A program made the translations under genes and the position numbers. Positions 17,512 to 47,567 of a DNA stretch of 64,000 bases are shown here, piece by piece. The notes under the pieces were generated by a model. The model did not search any database and was not told the origin of the DNA. It worked only from the letters and a program-made list of their open reading frames with translations. Numbering within the stretch: the stretch's first letter is position 1; the number at the start of each line of letters is the position of its first letter. The stretch spans positions 1-64,000 of the forward strand of contig JAUCBJ010001188.1 in the NCBI GenBank assembly GCA_032718475.1, read 5' to 3'. Origin of the DNA: Nemertoderma westbladi. Taxonomy: Eukaryota > Animalia > Xenacoelomorpha.

Positions 17512-18195
17512 ATGGCTGACTTTAATTCAGGTCCATATAATTTAAACTTTCAAATGGGAACGAGTATGATAATTTCTGGCCCGTCTGGTTCCGGAAAGTC
17601 TACATTTGTCAGTAATTTAATTAAACACAAAAATGGTTGTTTCAATGAACCCCCCTTGCGAGTATTGTATTGTTACGGGAGCAATCCCCCGACTATTCCT
17701 GGTATTACACACCTTTACAAAGGTTTGCCTGAAAATATAGATAGTTTAGTGAATAGTCGAGATTTATTAATTATAGATGATTTATTAACAGAAACTGAGT
17801 CCAGTACAGCTTTAACTGTATTGTTTACTAAGGTAGCTCATCATTCCAATATATTTATTTGTTTTATAACGCAAAACATGTATTACGGTGGGAAGCATAA
17901 CCGCACAAGATCAATTAATAGCCATACCTTAGTATTAATGAAAAATCCGCGAGACAGTTTATCGGTTTTAAATTTCGCGAAGCAGATGTTACCAGGGCAG
18001 ACCAAATTTTTAGTAGATTCCTATCAAGATGCGACTATTGAACCATTTTCACATTTCTTAATTGATTTACGACAGGAAACACCCGAACATTTAAGATTTA
18101 GATCGGATATATTTCATAATCATAATTGTTACATTAAAAATTACATTGACTATAAACGTAGCGAAAATAATAATAATAATAATAATAATAATTAA
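17512..18195 (+). CDS. Polinton DNA-packaging ATPase (FtsK/A32-like)
   Basis: Walker A GPSGSGKS, Walker B LLIIDD, FTKVAHHSNI, ITQN, KNPRD. Confidence 0.95.
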   Translation: MADFNSGPYNLNFQMGTSMIISGPSGSGKSTFVSNLIKHKNGCFNEPPLRVLYCYGSNPPTIPGITHLYKGLPENIDSLVNSRDLLIIDDLLTETESSTALTVLFTKVAHHSNIFICFITQNMYYGGKHNRTRSINSHTLVLMKNPRDSLSVLNFAKQMLPGQTKFLVDSYQDATIEPFSHFLIDLRQETPEHLRFRSDIFHNHNCYIKNYIDYKRSENNNNNNNNN

Positions 18196-18340
18196 TATTT
18201 TGTAACAATTTTCAATAATGTTGCAACAATGAATAGACTTGTGCAGAAATATCGTAACGAACTGGAATTTCTACACAGCGCTACCCCTCAACAAAGAACT
18301 TATTTTATTAACCATACCGCGAGTAACGAATTAATACGGC

Positions 18341-20263: not shown

Positions 20264-21166
20264 GTAGGAATATGTTATTTCTATTTCCTTTTGTGGAATG
20301 TTTTTCATATTTCCTAATTTAGTAGGAATATGATTATTTAACATATTTCCTAATTTAGTAGGAATATGTTTTACTGAACTACGGTTCGGTAGGACTAAAG
20401 TTATTTGAAAATTTTGTATTTTGAGGTAAAAATTTATATTTGATTAGCTAAGTGCTAATATTTTGAAATAAAATTTGATTTGAACCGCGTGTAAAATTTT
20501 TTGGAATTGAATACCGGTGTTTAAAAGGGTTTAAATACCATATTGTACCGGTACAAAATTTTCGTAAAGTAAAACCTAACTCTTTTGTTTTTCAGGATTC
20601 AGAACTCATTTCTAGACTGTAACGGGAGCAAGACCGTGTTTAGCAAGTTTGGGAGATAGATAACTCAACAACTTTGGTTGGGAAAATCGCGTTTCGTCCG
20701 CAACGTTAAAAACGGAAAGGTTCACGTTCGGTTTGTATCTGGGAATCTGTTTTTCTGGAGAATTATTGGAGTGGGTGAGTTCGAAAAGTTGCATAAATAA
20801 GTTAGGCATTACCGTATTTAGTTAAAATTATTGTGGGTTCCACTGTCTCAAGTATTTATGCATTCCGTACGATTTCTTTGTTCATTGCTGAATTAGTCCG
20901 TATTATTGTATTTAATTTACCTTTTGATAACGCATATCGTTATCCGATTTATTTGTTGTAAAATTGGCCGCTAGGCTAATTTTATTATATACTTATTCCG
21001 TGACATTTATTTGCTGTAAAATTGGCCGTTTAGGCTAATTTTATCCATCTGCTATAAAATCAGCCGGTAGGCTAATTTTATAAGACTGTAATTAGTACCG
21101 TTTAGATATAAATACGGTAAAACTCGATACTTTGACACTCACTTTACTTGACTTACAACTACCGAA

Positions 21167-25640: not shown

Positions 25641-28002
25641 TAGGCTTGCGAGTCTACCTACCCCAACGACACCAACAATGCCCGTCGATACAAAGAAAAG
25701 GACGACGGCGGCAAAACTCAAGAAAAAACCGAAGGCGAAATGGAAAGATATAACTTCAAAGGTCAAGAGAGGAAGACTTGCGAGCCTTTCTACACCAGAC
25801 ATATCGCCAGACGGTCAACCAGACATATCGCCAGACGGTCAACCAGACACGTTACTAGACGGTCAACCAGACGTTTTGCCAGACATATCACAAAATGTTC
25901 CACCAGACGTTAGTAACGCACTGACAAACAGTAAAGCCGCAGTTTCCCTATTGGAGCGGCCTTCTATTGACAAACAACCAGATACGTTACCAGACGTATC
26001 GCCAGACACACTACTAGACAGTCGACTAGACACTAGTAATGTATTGACTAACAATAAAGCCGCAGTTTCCCTATTGGAGCGGCCTTGTATTGACAAACTA
26101 CCAATTTTGACACACTTGAGCAACCATAAGCATGGTGAAACCTCATGTATTACAGATGTGGGTAGTACCTACGCTAATGTAAATACAGGTGTTACTTTGC
26201 GCTCAAGAGACATACCGAACTTACAACCTATGGTGAGACCTGGGATTAATGTCGGCAGAAAAATAAGTTTACCGAAACCTGCTGACCCCATAGAGTTCAA
26301 ACCACCATTAACGATCGACTTACAAAGTACCGACAATCAAGGTAAGAAGACAAAGAAGGACAAATTACTTGTAGACCCGGACGGATCAACAGTCAACAAG
26401 GGAATACTTACCGGCGGACCCGTGGGCCCTTCTAGTAATTCAAAACCTTCCAAGTTCTCCATTGACTTACCTGATGACGTCACAAATACTTACGTCGACC
26501 GTATTGTAAACTTAACAGATTCTTGGTCAAACGCTTGCCGAAAATTAGCGTGGATTGTACGTTTTGTACAATACGTTAAAGGCAAACGTGACTTCACACG
26601 TCGACTTACATTGGCTGAGATTGACAGGTGTGAGATTAAATTAATTCGCCATTACCAACTGAGATATTTCGCGCGCGAATTCACATCCATAAATCAAGGT
26701 CAACCAATCAAGTCGTCACCGATACTGAGTTGGAGTCCGATTATTTATAATGGCTTAATTTGTCATAAATCTCGGCTTCAAAACATTGACTTTAACACGA
26801 ACTTTAGGTACCCAATAATAATACCGCAACATCACGAACTACAACGTGCAATGATACTGGACGCACATTTACATCTGAAACACGCTGGAAGACACCACTG
26901 TCTTTCCTACTTACGTACTAGATTTGTATTAATTAGACCCAGTAAAGCATTAAGTTCAGTGACACGTACGTGTATTATTTGTAAAAAGGTACATTCTAGA
27001 ATAGGTACCCAAGAAATGAGTGAACTACCACAAGCACGACTTCAAGCATTCAGACCACCTTTTACAGAGACTGGAATTGATTGCTTTGGTCCCATACATA
27101 CGAAACGTGGACGTATACTAGTAAAACGCTGGGGACTGATTTTCACATGTATGTCCAGTAGGGCAGTTCACATTGAACGTGTGATGGATCTTTCCACCAA
27201 CGCGTTTATACTAGCACTGCGGCGATTTATCGCTAGACGCGGACTAGTAAAATGCTTGTACTCAGACCAAGGGACAAACTTCGTTGGTGCTCGGAATGAG
27301 ATTGCTAGAGCCTTTAAGAAATTAGATCATGATCAAATCTCGAACGAACTGCAACCTCACAAGATTGTTTGGAAGTTCAATCCTCCAGATAGTCCTTGGA
27401 GAGGCGGAGTCTGGGAGAGATTGATTAGATCTATAAAGACAGCCATGGCAAAGGTCATTCCAGTAAACCACATATTAACAGACGACCAACTGACAACATT
27501 GTTTGTTGAAATCGAGGCAATACTAAATACTAGACCAATAGTATTAGTACCCGATGACAAACAATCTCAGTTTGCTTTGACACCGGCACACCTGCTAATG
27601 CAGGCACCGACGACTTTGACACCGATTTCTATTCCAATAGAAAGCGACAGCTATGGTAGAAAAGCGTGGAAAATCACGCAACTACTGGCTAACAAATTCT
27701 GGGAAATATGGCAAAACCATTATTTGCCCTCTATTTCTGCCAGAACAACATGGTACAATAACACCCGTGCATTAAAGCCGGGAGATCACGTGCTGTTGGC
27801 AGAAGTGAATCTGAAAAGACGCTTCTGGATAACAGGTGTCATTTTAGCCACACATCCATCTATGGATGGAGTGACAAGAACTGTGACGGTACGGACAATT
27901 GACGGTCGTACAGTAGACAGACCGACTCAACGTCTCGTACTCCTTGAAGAGACTCGTAACGAGTCTGGAGATTACAAATCTCCACCTAATACTAGTAAAT
28001 AA
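25606..28002 (+). CDS. BEL-2 linker plus integrase
   Basis: HHCC (HLHLKHAG...CIICKK), GIDCFGP, SDQGTNF, WERLIRSIK; no RT or RH motifs upstream. Confidence 0.92.
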   Translation: MSQLEIPSTTDDRLASLPTPTTPTMPVDTKKRTTAAKLKKKPKAKWKDITSKVKRGRLASLSTPDISPDGQPDISPDGQPDTLLDGQPDVLPDISQNVPPDVSNALTNSKAAVSLLERPSIDKQPDTLPDVSPDTLLDSRLDTSNVLTNNKAAVSLLERPCIDKLPILTHLSNHKHGETSCITDVGSTYANVNTGVTLRSRDIPNLQPMVRPGINVGRKISLPKPADPIEFKPPLTIDLQSTDNQGKKTKKDKLLVDPDGSTVNKGILTGGPVGPSSNSKPSKFSIDLPDDVTNTYVDRIVNLTDSWSNACRKLAWIVRFVQYVKGKRDFTRRLTLAEIDRCEIKLIRHYQLRYFAREFTSINQGQPIKSSPILSWSPIIYNGLICHKSRLQNIDFNTNFRYPIIIPQHHELQRAMILDAHLHLKHAGRHHCLSYLRTRFVLIRPSKALSSVTRTCIICKKVHSRIGTQEMSELPQARLQAFRPPFTETGIDCFGPIHTKRGRILVKRWGLIFTCMSSRAVHIERVMDLSTNAFILALRRFIARRGLVKCLYSDQGTNFVGARNEIARAFKKLDHDQISNELQPHKIVWKFNPPDSPWRGGVWERLIRSIKTAMAKVIPVNHILTDDQLTTLFVEIEAILNTRPIVLVPDDKQSQFALTPAHLLMQAPTTLTPISIPIESDSYGRKAWKITQLLANKFWEIWQNHYLPSISARTTWYNNTRALKPGDHVLLAEVNLKRRFWITGVILATHPSMDGVTRTVTVRTIDGRTVDRPTQRLVLLEETRNESGDYKSPPNTSK

Positions 28003-28662
28003 TTAGGAGTTTACAAATAGATTTCCACGTACCTGTACACCGTAGTAAGGACAGCGGTAGAATTCCATTGTCTTTATATGTGAACATTGAGGGTAGTACC
28101 CTTATGTGTCACATAGGAGCGGGATTTGTAGGTATAAGAAATGGAATTCTACTTGGAACTCACAATATTGAGACATTTTCGAAATTTTAGACAATCCATT
28201 TGGATTTGAAAAATTTTTAAAATTTTCTCCAGTGAATAGATTTCAGGGTACAGTCGGGTGGAACTTAAAATTAGAGAAACAAGAGAGGAAGACTTGCGAG
28301 CCTTTCTTAAAATTTTTAATTAAATTTTACACGGTCTTGTTTCAATAAGTTACGTCAAAATAGACTCCCCTATATTTATTACTAATTCTTGACTGCTTAT
28401 TTTCTGATAATAGTTTGGGATCAAAAAGTGAGTATTTTAGACTCACGGCCAGTTTAGCCCAAATTCGTTTTTATTTCGGCAAAAAATTTTAGATAAGAAG
28501 CAGCGTGTCATTAAAGAAACCTTAGATCTTAGGCTATGGGTAGGAGGTTAGAGCGTTGTCGAAGCCCAAAAGGCAGACGAAACTCTCACGTCTCCTCACA
28601 ACTAACCACAAACTCTGTTGTATTCCCTCTAGTAGTAATGATTATGTAACTACACCTCTAAT

Positions 28663-29961
28663 TATGGAGAAAGGGATACAAAGAGAGCCGAGATGGGGAT
28701 ATGATATCCAAGAGGAGGCGGCAGCTTCATTCGAACGATTTGGAGCAAAAGACTACACTATATTTGGTATAAAGGAATTATCAGAAAGTACAGCGAAGCT
28801 CGCAAAGACAGCAATGCCTTTACTCGAGCAGGATTTAGCATATTTCGAGACGTGTATCTTCGCTGTGCGGGATCTCTTATCGAAAGACCATCTATGTTTA
28901 CATTGTTACCCTATGAAGGAGAACGTATCGTGGAGATTACGGATGAATCACGGCAGACGCGCGCGCCTATCGGTCACCTTGGTGATGAATTCGAAGTAAC
29001 TACTACGATCGCCGACGATCCTTTAGAGGAACTTCTTGAGATCGAAAGGAACCTCCCGAAGAAATCTCAGACGGAGATTCGACAACTTGAAGCAACAGAT
29101 GCTATAGTTTGCCTACAACCTTCAGAAACCTACCAACCCATAGACCCAGATGATTACGATTATAGTATGGGAGGAAGCGCTCGACCGATTGGAGATCTTA
29201 TATACGAACGAGTGTGGTACCCTGCTAATACGATGTGTAGTAAATGTGGCGTCGCTGGACATCATATGGCAAAGTGCAGTGGAAAGCACATTACTACGAC
29301 TCAGCTAATCTGTGGATGGTGTGGGGATCAAGGGTCTCATACCTTTTATACTTGCTGGAGATTTATGGCTCAATGTACTTACTGCAATATAAAGGGACAT
29401 CGAGCATCTGAATGCCAACTGAGAGATATACCTTATGAACACGAATCTGTAAAACTCGTGAGGAAGTTATTTGATGAGTGGGCAGATTTAGCCGACGAAC
29501 ATGTATCGGCACAGAGAAGACGGTTTCCGATGAGAGCGCATCTCGGATTTTGGGCGGTAAATCCCCAGACGATGATGTCGGAAGGATACATCTCCGCTAT
29601 GCCTCAATATGACGAACTTATCGAGGTTGTCGATATTTTGCCCCACGACAGCGGATTCCGAGTGGTGCGCGAGTATCTGTTACAAATTCACCCGGATAAC
29701 AAAAACACGTGGAATTTTCAGAAAGTCGTTAATCGGATTACGTATGGTGAATTCGATCGTTTCCGAACTGAAAGGCGGAACAAGGGAGCTTGGTTAACCG
29801 TCGCATGGGCGTACCGAGCCGCGTTTTACCACAAACGTATACGAGCGAGCGTATTCGAGGAAGAAGAGGTCCTAGAGGCGACAAATATACCAGCCACTCC
29901 GGTTGCGCCGTCTGCACGTCACCCTCGGGAGGACGGGCAGGGTAGGATCATACGGGTCTAG
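28663..29961 (+). CDS. BEL-2 3' accessory ORF with three CCHC zinc knuckles (frameshifted between frames 28556-28999 and 28852-29961)
   Basis: Starts MEKGIQREPRWG (homologous to BEL-1 521-841); CSKCGVAGHHMAKC, CGWCGDQGSHTFYTC, CTYCNIKGHRASEC. Confidence 0.7.
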
Positions 29962-29964
29962 AAA

Positions 29965-30366
29965 GTGGGCCAACAATTAAAGAAAATTATTAATGTAGAA
30001 GAACGCAAGGGAGTTGAGCCGACTATTCGAGTTACTCGGGATACGGTATCACTTCCAAGAGAACCAGTAGGAGGATCGGGACATACACCAGCTGATCAAC
30101 AGGGGGCGCAAGCTACTCTCGGGTCTGCGTCGTCCGCTTCTCACGCGTTCCCAGACGTTCTACCAACTGTAGTGACGACTGATCGGTCACGAGGAATTGG
30201 TCGAGGTTTTGGGATGCCAAATAGACGAATTTGTGAGGAAATAGTCGCACCGTCTCTTAACGTCCCAAGTAAACCAGTGACTCGCCCCATTAGTCCCATA
30301 TCGCGAGCAAAGTCACCTGTGCGCAGTTTTCGAGGACGCGGCAGGGCTCGATCAACTAAGCGATAA
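29965..30366 (+). CDS. In-frame continuation of the accessory ORF past a TAG (basic, S/P/R-rich tail)
   Basis: Same frame as 28852-29961, directly after the stop; ends RGRGRARSTKR. Confidence 0.45.
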   Translation: MGQQLKKIINVEERKGVEPTIRVTRDTVSLPREPVGGSGHTPADQQGAQATLGSASSASHAFPDVLPTVVTTDRSRGIGRGFGMPNRRICEEIVAPSLNVPSKPVTRPISPISRAKSPVRSFRGRGRARSTKR

Positions 30367-31033
30367 AAGGGAGGGCAAGGGTGGACGGAAGACTCGTGAG
30401 CCTTTCTTATGATTTATGATTTATTTTGAATTATATGTTTTATATTTAGAAAATAAAACTTATATTATTTATGTTTCATATTTGAGATGCAAAGATTTAT
30501 ATTATTCCAAACTTATGCAATTTGTATTGTTCCGAACATTATGCAATTTATATTTTATAAGCAGTATTTGTATTTACAGTGTAAAAGAGAAAGTTTTATA
30601 GACAGAAAATTTTGTGCTCAGAAAGACTCATATTTGTAATTATTCCAAACTTATGCAATCTACATTTAGGTACGAAAGTATTTGTAATTACTTGAATTTA
30701 TGCAATATTTGAGATGCAATAGTAGATGGAAGACTTGCGAGCCTTTCTTATTGTTTTCATTTATTTGTATTTGTAATTGTTTGAATTTATGCAATATCTG
30801 AGATGCAATAGATTTACATTGGTGAATTTAATTTAGATTTATATTGTACTTAGTTAGTAAAGCCTTAAATACGTAAAGTTTGAATTTGTAATTATTTTGT
30901 ATCGAATCATTACGTAGAAAGGAAGTATTGTTTGAAACTTAATTGTAAATATGTAAGTACGCCCTAAGTATTCTATAGTTTGATTGATTATTGGTGAAAA
31001 CCGTATATTTTATGCACGATAATATCCTGTTTT

Positions 31034-31043
31034 CATGGAGCGG
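31034..31043 (+). other. Short polypurine tract (PPT) of BEL-2
   Basis: CATGGAGCGG immediately precedes the 3' LTR. Confidence 0.6.
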
Positions 31044-32962
31044 TATAGAATTATATTCCCTAAATGCCGTGGATTTTCAAAATTTTATTTTATTCGAATT
31101 AACTTTGTAAAGATTACTTTGAGTTCTCATTAGTATTGGTTCTATCTATTATGCATCTATCGGTCAAGTGGTTCAGTAGCTCAGTTGGTAGAGCGTTGGA
31201 AATTATAAGTGTAGTAGGTATCGAGTTCGAATCCTAGTAAGTGCGAATTATTTTTTGTGCAGAATTTCAACTCATTTAAATTAACCGCTACAAATTAATT
31301 GCATTTGTCTGTACCAATAAGGCTGTAGTTATTTGATTGTAACCAATGTCGTGCAAGTTATATATTAGCTGGACCAATAAGCTATCTTTAAAACCTCGTT
31401 AGAACCCATAGAACAATCGAGAATTTTCTCGATTGATTGCAGCACAAATTTAGTATATAAAGGTGCGATTTGTTCATTAGTTATCTATCTCAATCTCGAT
31501 CACTGCAATTTCCATCATTCGCTTTCTGTCTTATTTCAGATTACATTGTTTATTGTATAATAGTTATTATATGTTTTGTAATAAAGTCAGAATATTCTCT
31601 CAGCCTTTCTATCTGTTTTAATATGGTTTCACTACGGTGAACAAACTCAGGGACAGGATGGCCAGCTAGAGATCGGGCCGCAGCAATGAACGGGAACATC
31701 ACGGGAATGTAGACGAGAGACAACCCGCAATACCATTTAGAGTTATTCGCCCATCGCCTGAAAGGTTAGACAGCGTTCGATCCTTGCTACCTAAGTATAA
31801 GACCAAAAGATCAAAGGTAGACGTAGTGACACGCTGTAAGCCCAAAATTACATCATAGGGACTGTACTGTCTTGATTCAGGAAAAACCGCAGTAGACCTT
31901 CATATTCCTACGGGGGGGGAGAGAGAGAGAGAGCAGATACTAGTACGCAGATAGGACGTAGGCACACCGGTACAAGGCATACACATTGGTTAGGGTGCAG
32001 CAAACTGTACGCTTAACTCTTGCTAAGTACAGGTGTGTGTGCGACTATTTGCAGTACGACCGTGTCTATTACATCAGAACTTGTAGGCTAGGGGGTTGCT
32101 GTGTTTTCACCTGAATTGGGATTGTACCGTTCAGGCGGTAGGGCAGTTTACGCTAGGCGCAAATAAATTGAGGCTATCAGGGATATACTAACATCTACCG
32201 TGTCCCCGCCAACGCCCTAATAGGAAGTTACCTGGACTACCTGGGTGACTAAAATTCTAGATAAGAGCCAGGATAGCTATTAGTACCCGTACGCCTACCG
32301 TAGTAAACTAACACATCTCTTCTTAGTATCAGGGACCTGGTACCTAAAATTGCCGAATTCTGGGCGTAGTATTAACCTTATGCCTGAATTTGAGTCCTGG
32401 AGATACGCAAGAGGGGAAGGAACCTTATCATTCGTGAGTATTGGACCTACAAGTTATAAAATTAGAATATTCGTAAATGCACACCGTACCCAGTAATTAT
32501 ATATGTGAAGGAGCAAAACTGCTTTGACCGTTCAGAATTAACACACGCGCGTTAGAAATTATTTACACCTCGAAATATATAAAATTAACTTTCGTCCTTA
32601 CTGCACTTTGCTCGCTAGTTAGACATCTCCAAATCTGCTCTATACCTAGCTAGCGTCCCTTTGCCCAACCATATAAATCACACCGCGGCAAAGTATACGA
32701 GCCTCTTAGTCCGTCAGTGAGTCAGCCTGATTTTAGGATTCGCTGCGCGGGATTTGTTTTATCGAAGTTTGTCTGCTCGTAGACTGTTTTCTGCCTCACC
32801 GGTTAAAAGAGATCGATACTGCAATATATTCGCTTACTTGGGGTTTACTGTTTTGGTGAGAAGGTCGGATTTATGATTTGATTTACAAACTTTACAGTAG
32901 GATATTGCAGGTATTGTTACCGTCTCTTCCGATAGTAGGAATAGGCGTATCTCTCCAATTTA
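31044..32962 (+). repeat. BEL-2 3' LTR (1919 bp)
   Basis: Direct repeat of 18341-20263, followed by the TSD ACGGC. Confidence 0.95.
31170..31256 (+). ncRNA. tRNA-like Pol III cassette in the 3' LTR
   Basis: Copy of 18467-18553. Confidence 0.6.
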
Positions 32963-33241
32963 ACGGCTCATTATAAATACTGCATTAAATGTTCTAAAAG
33001 GTAACGTATAATTGACCCCTCATTCATTTAGAAATATTCGCCGCTATAAAAAGGTATTGAAATCACTCAACCGCAAAACAAAAAATATATCAAGTTACAG
33101 AAAAAAGTTAAGCAATCAATCTGGAGGCATACTACCGTTTCTAATACCCTTACTCGGCATTGGTGCGAAACTCGCCGCGAGTGCTGGTGCCGCCGCCGCT
33201 GGAGCGGTTATTGCGAAAAAAATTAACCGCGGACGGTAATA

Positions 33242-33475
33242 ATGGTTAAAACGGGTGTAACATTTAGAAAATTATATTTAGTATCGAGTAAACCGTTAGC
33301 TACTGATTTAAAACCTCAAGATATACCTAGAGTAAATACTACAAAAAGAAAACCCTTCAAAACATCAACTTCAAAGAAAATAAAAAATTTCAGCTGTTTT
33401 TACGGTGATGCCCTTTATAAGAGATTTGAATATACATATTACTTGCGGTTGTCGAAAAGATGCCACGCAAGATGA
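33242..33475 (+). CDS. Small basic Polinton hypothetical protein
   Basis: Tightly packed ORF between the core-like gene and integrase, TAATAATG start. Confidence 0.45.
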   Translation: MVKTGVTFRKLYLVSSKPLATDLKPQDIPRVNTTKRKPFKTSTSKKIKNFSCFYGDALYKRFEYTYYLRLSKRCHAR

Positions 33476-34552
33476 GACCGATTTTAAGCCGAAGCTTAGA
33501 CAAAAAACTGTTAAGAATTTATTTAGATCCTTCATCCCCTGCGGGTTTTGCAAGTATCACAAAATTAGCAAAAGCCGCAAACATCAAACTAGCTCAAGCT
33601 CAGAAATGGTTAAGCGGGCAAAAGACATACTCCCTTCACGCACCACGTAGACATCGTTATCCAACATCTAAAATATTTACGGGAGGGATAAAAGATATAT
33701 ATATGATAGATCTGGTGGATATGCAGCAATATAAATCACAAAATAATAATTATAACTATATATTAACATATATTGATACCTTTAGCCGGCTTGCTTTTGC
33801 CTATGGTATGAAGACAAAAACAGGTATTGAAATTATTAGTATATTGCAAAAAATATTCCAGAAAGGTAAACCAAACAGAATCGCGACTGATCAAGGTTCT
33901 GAGTTTCTAAATAAATCTGTAAGGAAATATTTAGATACTATTGGTTGGTATACAGTATTACGTAATGTACTCTGTGAATAAGGCAGCTATTGTCGAGAGA
34001 TTCAATAGAACATTAAAAACAAAGATGTTCAAAATTTTCACGCAATGGGGAAATAATGTTTGGATAAAAATTTTACCGAAGCTTATCTTGGCTTATAATA
34101 GGTCATATCATAGGACAATACAAATGACGCCCATTGAAGTTATTAAATTTAATGAAACTGAATTAATGAATAGATTATATGGGAAATATAGACAGATTAA
34201 TCACAAGAAAATAAAATTTAAAGTTGGAGATACAGTACGATTATCTATCGCGCGTACTGCTTTTGCTAAAGGCTATCGAGAACAATGGACACGTGAATTA
34301 TTTATTATTCATCGGGTCAGATTGGATAGAGTACCAGCGGTAATGTTCGATATTAAGGACAGCGCAGGTGCTATAATAAATGGGTCATTTTATTCATACG
34401 AACTCCAAAAGGTCCACCCGAATAGTAATATTTATCTTCCGATTGACAAAAATATTGGCAAACTTAAAGAACGTGTGCGCAATGGGAAAAAAGAATATTT
34501 AGTCCGATTCATTGGATCCAAGAAACAGTCGTGGGTACAGCATATTCAATAA
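33460..34552 (+). pseudogene. Polinton retroviral-like (c-)integrase with C-terminal chromodomain-like tail, one frameshift
   Basis: IYLDPSSPAGF, IDLVDM, TDQGSEF, KAAIVERFNRTLK, FAKGY, KKEYLVRF. A ttggttgg duplication at ~33941 explains the frameshift. Confidence 0.93.
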
Positions 34553-35023: not shown

Positions 35024-35893
35024 ATGGCTGTAGATACATATATCACTCTAGTTTCAGATAGCTCATTAAACACATACCCCAATAATAACCCTAGCGAGTT
35101 TACTGTTGATTTAGCTGAAGAATTATATATTGGTCCAAACGCTAAAATTGGACTCGCCGAGATACAATACCAAGCAACATACAGTAATATTACTCTGCAA
35201 ACTCAAATCTCGCTGTCAATCGGGGTAGATGCAAAAGATGTTAAATTATTCAGTTTATTTCCTGGTATGCATAGCTCTATTCAAATCATTATTGATGATA
35301 TAAATAAACTGTTTAATTCTGAAGCGAAATATAGAGATTTCGAATTCATTTTTAATGCAAATAATTCTAGAATTAAATTTAAATTTCCTAAAAAGTTGAA
35401 AAAAATACAATTAAGTCTACGTGGTGATTTAATTCAAATTCTAGGCTTAAAACAGTTATTGGATCAGAATCATCCAGGTATTCCGAATTGGGATATATAC
35501 AGTACCACTACAGTGGATGAATTAAGCAATATAGATATAGCGATATTAATTTTAAATTATAGTGGACCAAAAATTTCGGAAATTGGGATTTTAGATTTTC
35601 CAAATCCCACAAATATTACTCGTAATAAAGATACAATCTTCATATATACAGATATTATTAAGAGCTCATTTGTTGGTGACGCTTTAGCTCCGCTCTTAAG
35701 AACCTGTCCTTTAACACAATTAAATCGAAAATATATTAATCACGAATACGAGAGCATTTGCTATTACCCATTGTTGAATAAAAAACTAAAAACAATCTTA
35801 ATTACTTTACGTGACGGTCAAGGTGAATTAATTAATTTCAACGGTGGTCGCACTGTTATAACACTTAAGTTAATACGTGGTGGTGATGGATGA
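35024..35893 (+). CDS. Polinton minor capsid (penton-like) protein 1
   Basis: YITLVSDSS..YPNNNPSEFTVDL, IGLAEI, IFIYTDII..VGD..APLLR, LRDGQGELINF. Confidence 0.85.
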   Translation: MAVDTYITLVSDSSLNTYPNNNPSEFTVDLAEELYIGPNAKIGLAEIQYQATYSNITLQTQISLSIGVDAKDVKLFSLFPGMHSSIQIIIDDINKLFNSEAKYRDFEFIFNANNSRIKFKFPKKLKKIQLSLRGDLIQILGLKQLLDQNHPGIPNWDIYSTTTVDELSNIDIAILILNYSGPKISEIGILDFPNPTNITRNKDTIFIYTDIIKSSFVGDALAPLLRTCPLTQLNRKYINHEYESICYYPLLNKKLKTILITLRDGQGELINFNGGRTVITLKLIRGGDG

Positions 35894-36731
35894 GTTCTAT
35901 GTTAGGCTACCAAGTAACTCCTGTCCAATTGATTTTCCTCGTAATACCGGTAGTAATTATCAGATCAATTTCCATGGTGCCTTACCTATAAATCCAAACG
36001 AAAACTGGGTGGTAGGTATAAAAAGTATATTTTACTTAGCCACGTTACCGTCCATGTATAACAATGTAGAGAATGTTATTTTATTAAAAAAAGGGAAAAA
36101 AAATTTTGAGGATACACTTCCATCCGTCTTGTTCTACAGTATCAATGACATTATAGATTATTTTAACACTGGGGCGTTGAAAGATAAATTACAAATAGTT
36201 GAAAATACTCAGCAAAATAGGTTGCAATTTATTTTAGGGAAAACTGTACGAGAGTTATTTATAGGTCAACAATTAGCCTATTATTTTGGAATTACTGAAA
36301 ATAATCTCAGTGCGAATTTAAATCCAAATTTTAAAAATATTTTGAAGACGAAAAATAATATAAAGGGTTATTTAATAAAAATTATCGGAAATGAAGAAAA
36401 AGCTTACCAGATGGTATTTTTATGTCCTCAACCACCCAATTCTATTCCAGAACCTAAGTCGAACATGTACGTGACTACTAATATAATTGAAAATGAATAT
36501 ATTAATGATTTTGGTTTAGCTTTACTTCGTCGCGTGGCGATACCTGATGACGTGAAATATGGTAGTGTAATAAATAAAGAATTTGCCAAGGATACAATTC
36601 ATTATATCCCTGTAAAAAAATCATATAAGATAACATACATTCATATTGAAATAACAGACAAAGAAGGAAAAGATTTGAATTTTGAATACGGGACAACATC
36701 TATTACCTTACACTTTAAAAAAATAAATTAA
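35886..36731 (+). CDS. Polinton minor capsid (penton-like) protein 2
   Basis: FYVRLPSNS..FPRNT, WVVGI, MYVTTNII, LLRRV, ITDKEGKDLNF..TLHFKK. Confidence 0.85.
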   Translation: MDEFYVRLPSNSCPIDFPRNTGSNYQINFHGALPINPNENWVVGIKSIFYLATLPSMYNNVENVILLKKGKKNFEDTLPSVLFYSINDIIDYFNTGALKDKLQIVENTQQNRLQFILGKTVRELFIGQQLAYYFGITENNLSANLNPNFKNILKTKNNIKGYLIKIIGNEEKAYQMVFLCPQPPNSIPEPKSNMYVTTNIIENEYINDFGLALLRRVAIPDDVKYGSVINKEFAKDTIHYIPVKKSYKITYIHIEITDKEGKDLNFEYGTTSITLHFKKIN

Positions 36732-36732
36732 A

Positions 36733-37295
36733 ATGGATTCCGATTTATTTCAAAGATACAGTAAACCTCAATATGGTGGTGCAGACTCTAATCTTGCTGT
36801 TTTTAAAGGTGGTAGAAGTACGAGAGGTTCGACGCAAGTTCCTGTTTTTCGAGGTGGTTCATATATTGACCCTTACGGTCAACAAATTGGTGCATTTGGT
36901 CCAAATTTAAAACAATGTCGATTTCAACGTTATCGTAGAGGTATGATGCGAACAAATCAACACGGGGAAGGTATATTTACTGACGCTTTATCTACATTGA
37001 AAAAATTTGGGAAGCCATTAGCTAAAAAATTTTACAAAAAGCTTTACCATTTCCTACAAAATTTATGAGACAAAATGTAATACCAAAAGGTAAGCGGGTC
37101 TTACATCAACAGGCTAATACGGTTATTAATAAAGCATTAAATAAAATGAAACCATCAACAAGATCGGATGTAGAAAAAGTTTATAGAGATTTAAAGCGAC
37201 CAACTAGACCAATGTCTATGAACATACATCATCGTCGTAGTAAAAATAGAAAAATTAAAGGCAAACTGAAACACTGCGAAAAAAGTATTTTTTAA
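36733..37295 (+). pseudogene. Core / membrane-lytic precursor-like protein (one frameshift near 37030)
   Basis: QYGG, VFRGG and QHGEG/IF processing-type motifs followed by the amphipathic GIFTDALSTLKKFGKPLAKK; basic C-terminus. Confidence 0.65.
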
Positions 37296-37297
37296 TA

Positions 37298-38557
37298 ATG
37301 TCAATTATTAAGGAATTCGATTTATTTTCTACACAACCAATACAGACTGAATTTAAAGCAAAACATTATGAAACAATTTACCCCGTATCTAATCTCAGAA
37401 GCGAGTCTAGGGAAGTCACGTTCCTTGTACCAAGATCCAATGAATTCTATACGAAACTGCAAGATGCGTTATTAATTACAAAATGTACTGTACGGTGGGA
37501 TAGACGACTTGAAAACTCCCATATTTATATGTTGAATTACCCTTCTGGGACTATGTGGAGTGATATTAAAATAGACCTTAATGATAAGCAGGTTGAAAAT
37601 AGCAATAACCATTATTTCTACAAGTCGTACTTATCCAATTTACTATTTACAACATACGAAACTAAAAATGGGCTACTGGGGGCAGGCGGCTTTCGTCAGC
37701 ATTTATCCGAACACGGAAATGAAATTAATCCCGGCGCGCATCCTATTGGCGATGCCTTTAGTAAACAAATGCACTTTGTAAGTGGATTGACGATTGATTT
37801 TGATACTGAAAGTAAAATAATACAACCCGGGTATGATTTAAGAATGCATTTTAGAAAAGTATCAAATTAGTTTATTTTTAAAATCACTCCAAACGCAAAC
37901 GCTGTGACAAATCTTCGGCTAGAATTAGATGAAGTAAAGATCCTAATCCCTAGAATGGAGGTTAATCCCGTAATAGAAAGCAGTCACCTAAAAGGTTTAG
38001 AGAGTTACGATATTGAATATCAATTTCAAAAAAAAGAAGTTACTACATTTACTATTCCCGCTCAAACCACAAATTACACCCAAACAAACATATTTGATGT
38101 TAAAAAACCCAAATTAGTTATTATTGGTTTTATAACAAATAATTCATATTCGGGAGAATTAACTAGCAATCCCTTGAAATTTGAACATTTTAACCTTAGA
38201 CGCACGGAACTGATTGTAGACGGTCTTCCAGTAGGTGGTGTAATATACGAGCCTAATTTTACAGATGGAACATACATTTTTGAGTATACACAATTAATGA
38301 AGAACATTAATACATATATTAACGGTTATGGAGGTAATAATATAGACCATGAAACTTACTTAGGTAATTGTCCACTCATTTCCTGGGACATAACCACCGA
38401 CGGCTATGTTAGAGATCCTCAACCATCAATATATACTAATGGACAATTAAAATTAAGATTTGCCGAACCGTTGGTTGAGACCATAAATGTTATCGTTTTT
38501 AATATTTATGATCAATCATTAAGTTTAAATAGCAGGAAAGAAATACATATCGATTAA
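37298..38557 (+). pseudogene. Polinton major capsid protein (double jelly roll) with one in-frame TAG at 37868
   Basis: EFDLFS..PIQT, YFYKSYL, PKLVIIGF..NPLKFEHFNL, LKLRFAEPL. The two ORFs are in the same frame. Confidence 0.9.
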
Positions 38558-38559
38558 GT

Positions 38560-39012
38560 ATGTTATCTACAGAGGACCTTGATATGTTTCCAGTGGGTGG
38601 TCACTATTTGGGGGCGTTTCCATCTAATAAATTACCTAAATTAGATAATAATAAGCGGAGAGACTATGGGTTAATAGTAAATACCGATAAAGAGCATCTG
38701 CCAGGTGTTCATTGGGTAGCTATATATATACGAGATAATGATGCTGAATTATTTAATTCGTTTGGACCAAAATATCCAAACAGATGTATCGAAAAATGGC
38801 TTGAGAAAAATACAGCAAGGTGGTGTACTACCCGCAAACAATTTCAAGACCCTAGAAGGACCACATGTGGGTTATACTGTCTTTATTACTTGGTAAATCG
38901 AATTCACACAAACTATCCAATGAGAGCGTTTACAAATAATGTGGAAATAAATGAAATAATATTATATAAATGGCTTGTTAATTATTATAAAATAAACCAA
39001 CAAACGTTGTAA
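38560..39012 (+). CDS. Adenain-like cysteine maturation protease
   Basis: IVNTD..PGVHWVAI, FNSFG, FQ...TCGLYC. Confidence 0.93.
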   Translation: MLSTEDLDMFPVGGHYLGAFPSNKLPKLDNNKRRDYGLIVNTDKEHLPGVHWVAIYIRDNDAELFNSFGPKYPNRCIEKWLEKNTARWCTTRKQFQDPRRTTCGLYCLYYLVNRIHTNYPMRAFTNNVEINEIILYKWLVNYYKINQQTL

Positions 39013-39043: not shown

Positions 39044-39616
39044 ATGGATAATATTATTTTTGTCGATTTTCAATATTATAAGATAGACAATAAGGAATAT
39101 CCGGTAGTATTTAAAGAATTTGCTATATTCGATTCTAAATACAGTAAAACTAATATAAAGACGTTTTTAATTAAAGGACCTCCTGATATTAACTTATCAG
39201 CATTAGATGAAGCCCACGTAAACAATTTACGCGACATGACTTCACATTTACCTTGGGATTACGGCGACATTTCGCAAGATGACTTTAAAAAGTACATGAA
39301 GAGACAATTAAAAAATAAATATAATATATATGTATTTGGGTTGATGAAAGCCGCAATATTAAATACCCAACTTGATGTTTACGCTCCAAAATCAATGAAC
39401 AAATTGGGAATATTTCGACTATATTACAATTATTTAACTCCATGCCCCTTCCATGATAAATTAACTACTGTAGAAGATAAATGTAGTTTTCACAAAGATG
39501 GTGATAGCTGCTTGAATTACTGCTCAGCGAAAAGGATTGGAGGGTATGTAACGAAACGATTAACTGAGACAGGTGATAAACTGAAAGAAATAACTGCGGT
39601 GAATGATGTACAGTAG
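39044..39616 (+). CDS. Polinton accessory protein, possibly of a degenerate DEDD exonuclease fold
   Basis: IIFVDFQ..FKEFAI, HLPWDYGDI, IYVFGLMK, C-x2-H-x8-C; recognised by eye only. Confidence 0.5.
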   Translation: MDNIIFVDFQYYKIDNKEYPVVFKEFAIFDSKYSKTNIKTFLIKGPPDINLSALDEAHVNNLRDMTSHLPWDYGDISQDDFKKYMKRQLKNKYNIYVFGLMKAAILNTQLDVYAPKSMNKLGIFRLYYNYLTPCPFHDKLTTVEDKCSFHKDGDSCLNYCSAKRIGGYVTKRLTETGDKLKEITAVNDVQ

Positions 39617-41012: not shown

Positions 41013-41567
41013 CTAATTACCAATATATTCTACACCTAAAGTCACAACACCAAACATTAATAAATAATTAACCAGTTTACTAAATATAGGATAATAAATG
41101 TGAAATTTGCTAGGTGAACACATTAAAGTACATTTACCGGTATGAAAGCAGCAAATGACTACGGTATTATTTATTCTTATTTTGCAATTATTAAAAATTT
41201 CAGGTTCATATATAACTTGAAGTTGTACATTATCAAAGACAACATAAAACCCGGTATTGTTTATCAATAACCTATAGACTACAGACTTAATACTAAAAAT
41301 ATAAGTACATAAATTAACAGATTTTAAAATCAAATTAATACTAGTTTTATCAAATATATGCTTTTTTACTTTTTGGAAATTATACTTACTACCTAATAAT
41401 GTAATACGACCATTTTTAAATATTAATAATGTGGCACCAAATATCTTATATATAAACTGATTTGGTTTGAGTATGTGTTTACCAGATAATTGATTTTTTA
41501 ATTCTTTCAAATTAATCGCTGACACTTGCTGGCAACTTACATTCTTATTAACTATCTGATAGTTCAT
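41013..41567 (-). CDS. Divergent TATA-box-binding protein (TBP) homologue
   Basis: Two TBP half-repeats: QIVN..INLKEL..ATLLIFKNGRITLLGSK and IYEPEIF..VVICCFHTGKCTL; 184 aa matches the TBP core size. Confidence 0.8.
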   Translation of the reverse strand: MNYQIVNKNVSCQQVSAINLKELKNQLSGKHILKPNQFIYKIFGATLLIFKNGRITLLGSKYNFQKVKKHIFDKTSINLILKSVNLCTYIFSIKSVVYRLLINNTGFYVVFDNVQLQVIYEPEIFNNCKIRINNTVVICCFHTGKCTLMCSPSKFHIYYPIFSKLVNYLLMFGVVTLGVEYIGN

Positions 41568-44560
41568 TGTTTGGCTCCCGATAAATAGGTATATTGTTTT
41601 TTTTTACGGGTTTTTCAACCTTTGTTTGATAGTGACCCCAGGGAAGTGAATGATTTTTATTAACCCAATAAAGTTTATCATCAAATGCGCTGAGAGCAAA
41701 CTTATCTCGTGCTACAGTGTACACTTTGTGTAATTGACTCTGAAATTGATGCATTTCCTTGGAAATTTCTTTGTTATCCTTATATGCTCTTAAATAATCT
41801 TCGTGGCAAATTTTTTTATCCACGACAGGTCTTGTTATTCCTTTCGCCCGTCGTATATTTTTGTTATTCCATTCCAAAATTGAATATAATTTTGGTCTTA
41901 AAAATACTGCTTGTTTAATCTCTCTCGAGCACAACTCGTCTTTACAGTAATAGAGTCTGGATTTATTTTTATTGCTGTAGAGAGGGTGATCCTTGGGGTA
42001 ATTGGATGTATCTAAAATATTATTTTTAATTAAGGCTTTTATGAAATTACTCTGCGATGTATTATAATAACAACCTATTAATGAGTCTGTATCTGATGCT
42101 ACAATTTCAATTCGGCAGTTTAATTCTTTCTCAATAGGTAGTAATTTATTATAGTACAGCTCATACATATCCAATTTAGCCAAATCCAAGACAGTACTAC
42201 CTACATAGACTGGTTTATCTAGTGTCACGCTGTCTTTCACTAATAAGTGCCCCGATAAGGAATTGTTATAAATCATGAAATTTTCGTCATTTATACGTTT
42301 CACCAATTGATCGCATTTCTCATTGCTATTAGCGATACGGAAATTACAGCGATCTTGTATCTTCTCTATCGTTTTACCAAATAACGAGTTATTCAGCAAT
42401 TTCGCGACAGCTGTTTCAATATAAGTTTTTGCTAGTCGTCTTTGATTAATATTAAAATCTATATAGGGTTTAAATACAAAGTCTTGATGGAAAGAATACA
42501 ATTTATGGAGCTTAGTAACAATTAAACCTTGTTTTATATAAAATTTTAACAGTTTTAAATTTACATGATAGAATTCTTTATCGAATTGTGTCAACATAAG
42601 TTTTGGTGCACACATCTTATACTTGCTATTAGTACCTCTTTGTTTACATACATGATTATATTGTTCCCTCATATATGGTGAAAGCATTGTCTCATTTATA
42701 CTTAAATGTTCTGGGGCTAAGGGTAGTTCTAATGTACGATCATGAATATCTTTGGGATATTTCAAATCGCAAATTAAGAAAAACCCAATATCCCAATATC
42801 CCAATACCCAATATTCAGTATCAAGATTTGTTAAATAGTTTATTAGTTCTTCTGGAGCGGCATTCTCTAAATATGTAACGTTGACTTGTTCAAAACCTGA
42901 AACAGGTAGCTTTTTACTTAAATTACCCGAATACAAGGAATTAAAATCTATATTGAAAATATGACACTCTTCCTTGCTTGGATCATAATTATCAGTATCT
43001 GGTATATTTGATTCTATGTAATGCTTTCGACAGAATGAAACCCCTCCTCTAATAGATGCTTCAAAATCTCTATATGTTTGGTAATCTTTTATTAATGCTA
43101 ACTTACATTTATTGTATTTCAGGGCGCAATCATAAGTGAAAGCTGCGATACTGCAATAATAAACTACTTCTAATTCGTAGTTTTGTCTACATACTCTCCT
43201 AAAGTTCTCAAATATATCAGCGAGGAGACAAACATCGAGTTTTAAGTATGCTAAAAGATAATCCTTGAGATTTGAACAGTCAAACTGACTCCATGATGCG
43301 TTGGCAAAACTATATCCCTCGGGTGTACAGGTATTTTGTATTAATTTACTATAAAATTTGTCTATTGATGGTAATTTCGAATCATTGAATTTATTTAAAT
43401 CTGTCAGATACTCGTAGGGAAATATACCTTTTCGTTTAATTGTTGCATTATTTAAATTCGGATAAAAATATTTCATTTGCTGTTCAGTAATTGGTAGAAC
43501 TGATGTTATATCCTTGCTGTCTATATCCTTTGTTGAACAATCAACTAAAGTACTTAGGGAAAAGGATAAAAATTGATATGTGTCTAAGACACGTAGCTCA
43601 ATTTTTGTTTTTTGATTTTTCACCGGTATATGCATACTCAGTGAAATATACCTTTCAGAATTTTTAGGGATTACCTTTATATCCCAATCGGAATATCTGT
43701 TATTACAAAAGCCAACTTGTAAAAGAAAATGCAAATCGTAGTGATTGCAGTTGTGTGCAGCGAGTATATACATGTGTCGTTTCAATGATAAAGAGCGGTT
43801 ACATGCGTTACAAGCGGCTGCTATATAGTTACCAGTAATATGTGAGTGATGTTTGTTTTTCTCAGATTTATCCTTAAATAAAACATTGCAATAAAAGCAA
43901 GTTTTAGCTTTCCAAAAACTTAACTTATCTACATCATTAAGTATCATCTTTTCTCTCGTGTTAGTTTCTGACCACTTATATAATTGGGTGATGTCATTAT
44001 ATACAGAGTCTAAAAAGTCTTGAATACAGTTGTTGTCGATTGTTTTTGTAAAGGTTTTCAAATAAAATTTTGGTAGATTGATTAATTCGCTACTAGGGAC
44101 AATTAAATAACTTACAGCGCATGGAATATGATTCTGAATAAATTTACTGTTGCTGGCTGGCTCCAAAATAGATTCTATGTCAAAATATATTACAAACAAT
44201 GCTGGTAATGTTCTGTCTAAATTTCTAAAGCTAATGTGAGTTCTTTTTTCAGACGGTAGCTTCTCAACTTGACTTTTTCCTTGATAAAAAGTAAGACGGT
44301 GACGTTCTAGAACATCCTTGCTGTAGAAATGTGACAAACACCATTCACAATATTTCCTACATCCAATATGCTTACCTCTTGTATTCATCATGCGATTCAA
44401 GTTAGTTATGCAAACATAATGTGATTGTTTACTCGTATTCTTATTTTTTACAAGTAATATATTCAATAACTCTTTATCTGGAGTGATTTTACTAAATGGT
44501 GCCTGTCTTAATATAGATACTCGATTGTTCTCGTAGAGTAATAAATTAATTATATCAGTA
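41548..44560 (-). CDS. Protein-primed family B DNA polymerase (pPolB) with HNH/EndoVII-like insert; natural N-terminus missing
   Basis: ExoI YFDIES, HNCNHYD, KGIFPYEY, DVCLLADIFENFR, DFNSLY, KLLNNSLFGK, SDTDS, RPKLY, AKG; insert CFYC..HHSHITG..CNACN. Confidence 0.96.
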
Positions 44561-45395
44561 CTGGGCTGAGAGTTGGGGAATCGAAAACAAAGAATAGAGA
44601 TGAGGAACAGCGATAAAGTTTTTAATTTCATAATATTATAAGTCAAATGCAAACGTTTCGGAAGTAAACAACTACCATCTTCAGTGCAATCAAAAATAAG
44701 CCAAATTAAAGTAAACAGAAATTTGAAAAAAAACGGCCAAAGAAACAAATATAAAATGCAGTAGTGCTATAGTGCAGAAATAGGGCCTACCTAAGAAGGG
44801 CCCTTCTGGATATGGATATTTCAATTGTTTATCCATCTCTTTATTATCCTAAAAACAATTTAAAATTAATATGAATATTGTTATATATATATATATAATC
44901 AAAAAAAATTCATAAGCTACTCAACACAAATAAAATATAATATCTAAACTTTAATTAATTTAATATTTTCAGAATGAGCTCGATTGTATCAGTTGAGCTC
45001 TTTACATATATTTCAAGTTTCTACTTATACCAACCAATCATAAATAACAGTTACATTGGAAACTAATATCATAAATAAAGTTGCTTTTACAACTGAATTC
45101 TTTATAATAAAATCAAGTCTAAACCAAGATGTGCATAATGTGTTTTTAATTTTCATTGATAAAGTAGGTTTTACATGCTAATGTTTATTATAATATCAGG
45201 TGTAAACTCATGCATTTACATGCGAATGTTTTATACCTAATCCCATGCTCACATTAAATATAAACTATCACCAATATTTACTCAATAAAGTCACCTTTAC
45301 ATGCAAATACTTTATAATAATCATGCTTTGTGTTAAAAAGTTACCTTTACTAGTTAGTGTGAAACTGAAAAAAAAAGTCTCTAGTTAATAATAAA

Positions 45396-45974
45396 TCAAT
45401 CTGATACTGCTTTTATATGTTCCTTATTGTAATCTGCTACCTCTTCACTTGCTTTTGTAACTTTTCTTTTCTTTGTAGGTATAGAATCATTGTTGGGAAT
45501 GGAAGATGTTTGAGACGTAGATCTGCGCTTTCTATCACTCGATGTCTCTTCGATGTATGTCTTTGGATTAAATGTGGATGAAACTGCTTCTGGAAATGAC
45601 TTATTAACCTTAAACTTCCAAGGTGGTTGATATAGAATCGCGAAACCGTCTGCTATATCAGTTGATGAAACCTTTTCCATCATATCGTTGAGAAACTCTA
45701 TATGTGGTATGTCTTTATCATAATGTAACTGTAAATATTTGCTTTCCTTGTCTGTAATAATTACTTTTTTTTCTTGTACATTTATTTTTACTTTAAGTCG
45801 GTCAGATAAAGCTTTATCGCTCGTATCTAGCTCTGAAAAGACACCTTCGTTACTAATTTCATAATTCCATTCATACCACAATGAATTTACTTCCGATGCT
45901 GTTAAGTTAAACCCATTATAATACCTAAGACCAATAGCATCAGAATATCTAGCTGAAATCTCCCATAGTCCCAT
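45396..45974 (-). CDS. Polinton hypothetical protein (weakly penton-like N-terminus, NLS-like tail)
   Basis: AYMGLWEIS resembles the penton xGLxEI motif; RKRR and KKRK clusters. Confidence 0.4.
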   Translation of the reverse strand: MGLWEISARYSDAIGLRYYNGFNLTASEVNSLWYEWNYEISNEGVFSELDTSDKALSDRLKVKINVQEKKVIITDKESKYLQLHYDKDIPHIEFLNDMMEKVSSTDIADGFAILYQPPWKFKVNKSFPEAVSSTFNPKTYIEETSSDRKRRSTSQTSSIPNNDSIPTKKRKVTKASEEVADYNKEHIKAVSD

Positions 45975-46831: not shown

Positions 46832-47567
46832 GGCTATGGTATAACTCGGATATTTATCGCCTTTTTCTCTTGAGGTTGGATGGAAGAGTGATTGGTGAGT
46901 TGTGAGGAGTTATAACAGTCCCGAGTTCGAACCCAGTTGAATATTTTGTTATCTGAAAAATTGCAAAATTAAATTTAGTTACTGGTGAAAATTACTAGAA
47001 GTTACCTGTAGACACCTCTAGCATCTGTAAAATAAAGGTTGGTGAATATGAAAATACTGGTTGCTGAAAAATAGCGATTTGAAAAATAGTAGAAGTTACC
47101 TGTAGACACCTCTAGCATCTGTAAAATAAAGGTTGGTGAATATGAAAATACTGGTTGGTGAAAAATAGCGAAAATGAAAAATAGTAGACGTTACCTGTAG
47201 ACACTCGTAGCGCCTGTAAAATAAAGGTTGGTGAATATGAAAATACTGGTTGCTGAAAAATAGCGATTTGAAAAATAGTAGACGTTACCTGATGCTAAGT
47301 GTAGACACCCGAACACCTGTAAAATAAAGGTTGGTGATTGGATGCAGTACTAGCGTTGGGTGACTAATAACGCCTCTAGCGGAATAAGCGGGAACTTGAG
47401 AAGTTACCATGGTTACGAATGAAATGCTGGCATCTGATTGGTTGAAATAATAACGACCACTGGTAAAGGTTGAAATGGTGGCTTCTGATTGGATGCAGTA
47501 CTAGAAATGGACAGTAATACTGGGCTATGGGTGACCTTGGCCGGATGTCATAGCTTCTTATACTACT
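46832..47567 (-). repeat. Polinton right TIR (one extra subrepeat)
   Basis: Inverted copy of 15301-15925 ending ACTACT. Confidence 0.95.

Follow-up and report, generated by a model that had tools for sequence, protein, structure and literature searches.

The window (the whole stretch of 64,000 nucleotides of Nemertoderma westbladi DNA that was analysed) carries a Polinton at 15301-47567 and, on the minus strand of this element, a gene for a divergent TATA-binding protein (TBP). Polintons have terminal inverted repeats (TIRs) and a 6-bp target duplication. Here, both termini read AGTAGTA (at 15301 and 47567), the TIR arms are 97% complementary over 525 nt, and the flanks AATATG / AATATA represent a 6-bp target duplication with one mismatch. 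The other class features are present as well, namely pPolB and an rve integrase (broken), a packaging ATPase, an adenain, and genes in the capsid slots, with the ATPase and the protease assigned by Pfam and the capsid genes recognised only through homologues that occupy the corresponding slots elsewhere. The minus-strand block consists of a 192-aa ORF, pPolB, and TBP, and the remaining Polinton genes are on the plus strand:

15301..15925, plus strand: left TIR, beginning with AGTAGTA
16131..16556, plus strand: 141-aa ORF, no family match (Pfam)
16624..17325, plus strand: 233-aa ORF with an N-terminal RING-like Cys pattern; weak Pfam match to zf-RING_2 (E 0.039), below the cut-off
17512..18195, plus strand: packaging ATPase (A32/FtsK-like); Pfam Pox_A32, E 9e-4; 14 Polinton-locus homologues, best E 3e-47
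18229..33241, plus strand: small conserved Polinton gene between ATPase and integrase, split by an LTR element (18341-32962) and also with a stop
33460..34552, plus strand: retroviral-type integrase in two frames; Pfam rve, E 4.6e-10
35024..36731, plus strand: two tandem ORFs (289 and 281 aa), putative minor capsid; homologues in 10-11 loci
36733..37295, plus strand: basic Gly/Arg-rich ORFs (111 and 76 aa), from the ORF list
37298..38557, plus strand: putative major capsid protein; same-slot homology in other loci; in-frame stop at 37868-37870
38560..39012, plus strand: adenain-like maturation protease; Pfam Peptidase_C5, E 3.1e-5
39044..39616, plus strand: 190-aa ORF convergent with TBP; no Pfam match; BLASTP to an ORF of locus L008, E 0.006
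41013..41567, minus strand: divergent minimal TBP, 184 aa; PF00352, leave-out profile, fold match, residue map
41548..44631, minus strand: pPolB ORF (protein-primed family B DNA polymerase), 1027 aa; stop 20 nt inside the TBP ORF
45396..45974, minus strand: 192-aa ORF upstream of pPolB, no family match
46832..47567, minus strand: right TIR, with the 6-bp target duplication AATATG / AATATA beside the element

The minor capsid label of the 289- and 281-aa ORFs is putative and derives from their position and their homology to the same Polinton slot; by Polinton gene order, the two Gly/Arg-rich ORFs are putative core proteins. The 190-aa ORF is presumably DEDDh/Maelstrom-like, as judged by eye. 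L008 has a similar ORF in the vicinity of TBP, and L001 possibly does too, with no match to L001 in BLASTP. Counterparts of the small conserved gene in L001 and L053 match positions 32970-33155 of the window (tblastn). No RNA polymerase was found among the element ORFs (ORF list and Pfam). The element family is AT-rich, with about 30% GC, and GC3 is 0.21 in TBP versus 0.23-0.29 in the other element genes.

The insertion in the small gene is a Pao/BEL-like LTR element of 14.6 kb with a 5-bp duplication (ACGGC), near-identical 1.9-kb LTRs, and the ends TA...TA, not TG...CA; Pfam finds gag-like, integrase-side, and zinc-knuckle domains in its ORFs, among which no reverse transcriptase was found. 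Minus this insertion, the Polinton is about 17.6 kb long. The region between the 190-aa ORF and TBP holds a 410-bp tandem duplication (39995-40808; copies 93% identical) and, at 40761-40897, a GC-richer array of 12-bp repeats, neither of which has a further copy in the window. A LINE-like element with endonuclease and reverse transcriptase ORFs on the minus strand follows at 47796-54421, with 31-bp repeat arrays on both sides. Such Pao-type and LINE neighbours suggest that the host is an animal.

Window-wide, there was no match to the ~400 N-terminal residues of a relative's PolB. An OTU domain at the N terminus of PolB is characteristic of adintoviruses, which are divided into an Alpha and a Beta class (Starrett et al. 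2021). At 44631-44860 (minus strand), a short ORF begins upstream at 44836, and there are a GT donor-like site and a pyrimidine tract with a terminal AG; together, these suggest splicing. A pyrimidine tract plus AG is also found shortly 5' of the pPolB ATG in L001 and L008.

The Polinton copy in the window is defective. The lesions that the preliminary description had noted in the integrase and the major capsid gene are a frame break at 33950-33981, around which the integrase occupies two frames, and the in-frame stop at 37868-37870. The preliminary description had also remarked that TBP is intact while these genes are broken. Little can be concluded from this: given 3-5 lesions across ~12.4 kb of coding DNA, the probability that a 555-nt ORF is spared by chance is 0.80-0.87. 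The intact frame is therefore uninformative; it is the sister copies that provide evidence for selection.

The 184-aa ORF encodes a divergent TBP

As read from the window sequence, the ORF at 41013-41567 (minus strand) is intact from ATG to TAA and holds both half-repeat motifs (LLIFKNGRITLLG and YEPEIF...CFHTGK); its start region overlaps the 3' end of the pPolB ORF by exactly 20 nt. All of this is as first described. The Pfam TBP family (PF00352) matches the protein in two stretches that cover both repeats, with an E value of 3.7e-10 and 39.9 bits, above the curated cut-off of 22.9. Furthermore, a profile built from 80 other TBPs, with the query left out, recovers the window protein at E 1.9e-10. 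All 30 feature matches in the ESM Atlas were TBP clusters (best score, 0.95), with a recognition value of 1952, which is below the 2300 mark and makes this weak evidence on its own.

An AlphaFold2 model guided by an 81-row TBP alignment (pLDDT 75.3) is a TBP saddle. Its top matches in the PDB were only TBPs (44 chains at E<=0.001; Foldseek E 1.6e-9), VIA gave a Z of 11.9 with an rmsd of 4.7 over 168 residues against TBP (next non-TBP row, 7.7), and viral TBP-like proteins in BFVD were matched as well; the match is partly circular because the input alignment consisted of TBPs. The single-sequence model was poor (pLDDT 39.5) and had no structure match at E<=0.001, with TBP chains ranked second and fourth. 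A PDB sequence search with the window protein alone gave no TBP match, a word-seeded homologue search gave none among 41 candidates, and a full HMMER scan gave one match, P0002 (E 8e-4). Identity to any of the 120 TBPs compared is at most 28%. The nearest sequence matches (P0002, with 31%, P0003, and P0004) are minimal TBPs of 171-175 aa on short unannotated contigs, with Phe99 kept. The window TBP is a bare two-lobed saddle without an N-terminal extension. PF00352, the leave-out profile, the sister copies, and the relatives agree on a divergent, element-encoded TBP. ATTAAA lies 10 nt past the TBP stop, and several AATAAA are also found within pPolB and TBP.

Purifying selection in sister copies

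Sister copies of TBP are assembled contigs from four public runs. They cover TBP and pPolB in many variants and span the overlap of the two genes. One subfamily, ~84% identical (48 differences in 293 nt), leaves the window sequence at 41515 and rejoins it in pPolB at 41621. The sister-copy table lists 40 of 71 differences, from which 3 outside the ORF were dropped, and the 37 analysed comprise 21 synonymous and 16 non-synonymous changes and no stops, with 25 at third codon positions. The expected synonymous share is 0.19-0.25, versus 21/37 seen (p 5e-7 to 4e-5), and the crude pN/pS is 0.18, a rough value in that sites were classed one by one and subfamilies pooled. The only length variant listed is an in-frame one of 9 nt in the C-terminal tail of TBP, and one non-synonymous difference is at codon 121 (the stirrup Glu). 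In sum, the TBP gene is under purifying selection across sister copies.

TBP genes in related Polintons

A search with a pPolB alignment yielded 127 loci, the metagenome part of which is the best 80 of 541 from 12 of 64 parts. Among the loci listed, four (L001, L008, L017, and L055) have a TBP gene, each scoring higher than the Pfam cut-off. Of the 28 loci of at least 11 kb, 3 have TBP and 25 do not; most Polintons thus lack the gene, which is therefore dispensable for the class. No TBP was found in the 45 genome-contig loci L083-L127, Polinton-type pPolB loci in bacterial/archaeal MAG records that are probably misbinned eukaryotic or viral contigs. Scans of viral contigs with pPolB, TBP, a four-TBP alignment, and an ATPase alignment gave nothing, and the pPolB alignment gave two loci, both TBP-less.

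In the pPolB tree (FastTree; 64 rows of at least 700 aa from the window and L001-L082, with L083-L127 left out), the window element, L001, L008, and L017 fall into one 15-row clade with a support of 100, and L055 lies elsewhere. The other 11 rows of this clade have <5 kb beside pPolB, too short to show TBP absence, and the clustering of the TBP label on the tree is not beyond chance (54/500 shuffles). The TBPs of the window, L001, L008, and L017 also group among themselves, at 90/94 in a careful 30-row tree, a value below the starred level, and at SH-aLRT 96 in a quick 65-row tree that carries a long-branch warning, and such branches may be placed together falsely. The four lineage TBPs are 17-44% identical to one another, the window TBP being the most diverged (end branch, 3.4), and sit at an open node whose neighbours differ between the two trees. 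On these sequence grounds, TBP is likely a long-resident gene of one Polinton lineage. The TBP-like gene of L055 (8426-8911) belongs to an unrelated pPolB clade, lies beside dUTPase-like, F-box-like, and DUF4326 genes, and, being without the derived features of the lineage, is probably a separate, second capture.

The preliminary description had named a recent host retrocopy among the outcomes that would undo its reading. The gene is intronless, as expected of a retrocopy. In the 30-row tree, the window TBP lies outside the eukaryotic TBP clade (96/94); the trees are without metazoan TBPs, and an old host-lineage origin is conceivable. A recent retrocopy is ruled out, however, by the divergence from other TBPs (identity of at most 28% to any of 120), the position outside the eukaryotic clade, the purifying selection in sister copies, and the homologues with shared indels in other Polintons, three of them same-clade relatives; GC3 is like that of the other element genes. 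That the gene is a recent host retrocopy or a neutral passenger is extremely improbable.

The position of TBP varies. In L001 and L017, it follows pPolB at ~1 kb on the same strand, behind two other ORFs; in L008, it is directly before the ATPase gene and 5.5 kb from pPolB; in L055, it comes after the ATPase gene, far from pPolB. The suggested coupling to pPolB is hence a local arrangement: a search of other loci, as had been proposed, did recover TBP in 4 of 127 pPolB loci, but the overlap is kept in none of these four, and strict coupling is ruled out. In L001 (7511-8399) and L017 (4842-5739), a 216-aa ORF overlaps the TBP ORF by several hundred bases in another frame, with TTAAGC ~40 nt 5' of its start in both.

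Gene position also bears on a role in replication or element architecture, in which TBP would be a DNA-bending protein for the TIRs or for protein-primed initiation, translated together with pPolB through the 20-nt overlap. The overlap in the window, the same-strand location within ~1 kb in L001 and L017, and the sister-copy contigs that span the junction fit such a role. However, TBP is far from pPolB in L008 and L055, most Polintons replicate without it, and a replication protein would have no reason to keep the TFIIB stirrup described below; we regard this role as very unlikely.

Residues of the lineage TBPs

Yeast numbering was transferred via P0006, which aligns to yeast TBP without gaps at an offset of 56, and DNA-contact positions are those of Table 1 in PMC12529657. 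N69, F116, G125, E186, P187, E188, F190, and F207 are kept in the TBPs of the window, L001, L008, and L017. The place of F99 is Lys/Arg in all four, in a register deduced from repeat symmetry together with the Phe-Pro motif (by MAFFT alone, F38 of the window protein would fall there): Lys/Arg-Pro stands 16/15 residues before the F116 equivalent in all four, versus Phe at -17 in 98 of 117 other TBPs and one place earlier in most of the rest. V122 and T124 are changed as well, and V71, L114, N159, L205, V213, and T215 are partly changed. The first lobe is shortened in all four, and the second lobe is shorter by one residue, the span from Y185 to F207 being 22, versus 23 in 111 of 120 others. All four share a YEPExF stirrup, which reads YEPEIF in the window TBP, with E121 and E123 as the acids (= E186, E188).

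The window TBP keeps the hydrophobic concave sheet and three intercalating Phe (F50, F125, and F141), with Lys in the place of F99. It alone has P191 replaced by Asn (Pro in 119 of the 120 other TBPs) and G216 by Cys (Gly in all 120), and thus does not have the canonical set of four intercalating Phe plus P191. The first TBP lobe reads the 3' half of the TATA box, and its rewiring would allow G or C in that half. The acids of the C-terminal stirrup bind TFIIB, the stirrup making 4 of 8 TFIIB contacts (PMC10005294), P191 in TBP favours T at the first position, and a proline matching P191 is required for the function of the herpesvirus protein ORF24 (PMC12529657). Judged by the contact residues, the lineage has therefore preserved the TFIIB face and rewired the DNA face, mainly in the first lobe.

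The same residues could be those of a decoy for host shut-off, which would keep the TFIIB stirrup, bind promoters poorly, and titrate host TFIIB/Brf or TBP regulators, thereby damping host or antiviral transcription. The lineage has only three of the four intercalating Phe, and the window TBP is also without P191 and G216 while E186/E188 are kept, all of which would suit a decoy, as would a target word that was not found in the window element (see below). On the other hand, N69, F116, F190, and F207 are retained along with the hydrophobic concave sheet, strand-specific words stand upstream of genes in relatives whose TBP is rewired in the same way, and the element depends on host Pol II to have its genes transcribed. 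We consider a decoy unlikely.

Words upstream of element genes

The 120 nt 5' of each ORF were compared with AT-matched permuted windows, with two word lengths per locus. In L001, 7 of 14 ORFs are preceded by TTAAGC, a result equalled by 3 of 1000 AT-matched permutations. In L008, 7 of 15 ORFs are preceded by CATAAAC (0 of 1000), which has 12 coding-strand copies and no copy on the opposite strand. Both words are found before ATPase, integrase, and putative capsid genes, in most cases 22-93 nt 5' of the ATG, and both are absent before pPolB and TBP. CATAAAC also stands before three ORFs of the capsid-side block of L030 (5133-7910, minus strand), a locus of the L008 subclade. The 8.9 kb seen of L030 are without TBP, and therefore the gene is predicted in the missing part.

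The window element has no enriched upstream word: its best 6-mer was equalled in 176 of 200 permutations. In 36 further word tests, TTAA was best (11/12 plus-strand genes; 4/150), a value that fails for 36 tests and a count inflated by upstream stop codons. L055, which has a TBP, gave no significant word either (282/1000). Among TBP-less controls, several of which include non-element flanks, 5 of 25 loci of at least 11 kb also reach <=1/100, with TATA-type words in L014 and L070, TTAAAA in L026, AAGAAA in L085, and AAAAGGC in L104; the top word is TATA-type in the TBP-less elements L014, L018, L038, L070, L082, and L101. Non-canonical words before virion genes, as candidate boxes, are seen in L001 and L008 and not in the window or L055, and non-TATA words occur in 3 of 25 TBP-less loci, too.

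In the window element, several genes have TTATAA or TTATA at positions -30 to -62, which is not significant. These boxes would fit an activator of relaxed specificity: the lineage would have begun with a private-box factor, which in the AT-rich window family would bind plain A/T-rich boxes, indistinguishable from background, and boost element genes generally. The loss of P191 and the longest branch of the window TBP point in the same direction, but no statistic supports any word, and such an activator overlaps with the promoter factor discussed below so far that the two are inseparable by sequence alone. We hold it to be quite unlikely.

Other repeats were seen 5' of genes of the window element. 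An imperfect tandem duplication of ~237 bp (~34590-35020) lies 5' of the first putative minor capsid gene; its first copy ends in CTTAAGC, which contains the L001 word, and the second copy is without it. (AAT)n runs or AATA stand directly 5' of start codons at 16105-16130, 17495-17511, 35010-35023, and 37290-37297, and TAATAA is the most over-represented sense word of the element. Since (AAT)n runs also occur outside the element, they may be due to microsatellite slippage.

DISCUSSION

Our data point toward a TBP that would serve its Polinton lineage as a late core-promoter factor of its own, recruiting host TFIIB and Pol II; this prediction is somewhat more probable than its negation. It takes up the fold, the lineage-wide presence, the purifying selection, the rewired first lobe with the kept stirrup, and the private words in two relatives. 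TBP would be made from the pPolB-side (early) block, and its target would be a TATA-like but non-canonical box ahead of the packaging, integrase, and capsid genes. Once bound, it would use its intact second stirrup to bring in host TFIIB and RNA polymerase II; host Pol II is the assumed partner because no RNA polymerase is present among the element ORFs. The promoter-redirecting factor suggested in the preliminary description thus ranks best, but no target word for it was found in the window element. Further points against it are that L055 has no word either, that some TBP-less loci have enriched words, that the window TBP is the most diverged and is without P191 and G216, and that 25 of 28 large loci are TBP-less.

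A TBP in a Polinton is not unprecedented. A "TBP" label is found in the Fig. 5 legend of Starrett et al. 2021 (PMC8502044) and in the Fig. 5 and 6 legends of the preprint (10.1101/697771). By this label, the MELD viruses with adintovirus-like PolB of that article would share with the element described here a gene of the TBP type on medium-sized linear dsDNA; in the accessible text, TBP is a legend entry without an analysis of lineage, residues, promoters, or function, and the part of the supplement searched has no match to "TBP." In the literature outside subscription journals and Repbase, we found no study of a Polinton TBP beyond these legends. The element shares TIRs, the 6-bp duplication, pPolB, rve integrase, ATPase, adenain, and capsid-slot genes with animal Polintons/Mavericks (adintoviruses) and differs from them in TBP, an accessory gene in 3 of 28 related loci of at least 11 kb.

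A functional parallel may be the TBP mimics of beta- and gammaherpesviruses, which, according to PMC12529657, read TATTWAA late promoters with host Pol II. As in the KSHV ORF24 type, a nuclear DNA virus or element without RNA polymerase has a TBP fold that is proposed to read a non-canonical box with host Pol II. However, ORF24 is a 752-aa protein with all four Phe and without the TFIIB acids that contacts Pol II directly and depends on five viral partners (PMC12529657), whereas the Polinton TBP is a bare saddle of 160-185 aa with Phe99 lost, the TFIIB stirrup kept, and no recognised partner set. The window TBP thus does not have the ORF24/UL87/BcRF1 domain layout: it is a saddle only, with the acids kept and F99 lost.

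With cellular TBP (PDB 1mp9, 1ytb, and 1cdw), the window protein shares the two-lobed saddle, N69, F116, F190, F207, and YEPExF; it differs in a structural identity of 18-21%, in the changed F99, V122, T124, and N159, in shorter lobes, and in having no N-terminal domain. Nucleocytoviricota and Mirusviricota also encode divergent TBP folds, and the nearest Atlas clusters are largely viral. The BFVD matches include HaV01, EsV-1-53, and abalone asfa-like B263R, at 9-19% identity, with no sequence-level kinship found. Nucleocytoviruses are far larger than Polintons and mostly have their own RNA polymerase. The same holds for mirusviruses, in which TBP is present (PMC10132985). Loss of intercalating Phe is also seen in TRF2, a protein that fails to bind TATA (PMC10005294).

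A more specific form of the promoter-factor model is a late switch made of one protein, in which the first-lobe-rewired TBP reads an element-specific box (TTAAGC, CATAAAC, or others), protein and box co-diverge, and host TFIIB is used; we consider this possible, though somewhat short of probable. For the window element alone, the gain would be moderate, since the target box was not found there. The question addressed is when Polinton capsid genes are expressed and whether there is a real infectious cycle. A dedicated promoter factor with matching words would be a direct test and a marker of lineages with a late programme. A TBP saddle with a changed DNA face and a kept TFIIB face, unlike the herpesvirus mimic, would show how TBP specificity can be recoded. 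If TBP-box pairs do co-diverge, they would be the smallest known viral promoter-recoding system and a natural library of orthogonal TBP-promoter pairs, and they would be evidence for a true early/late viral cycle in Polintons.
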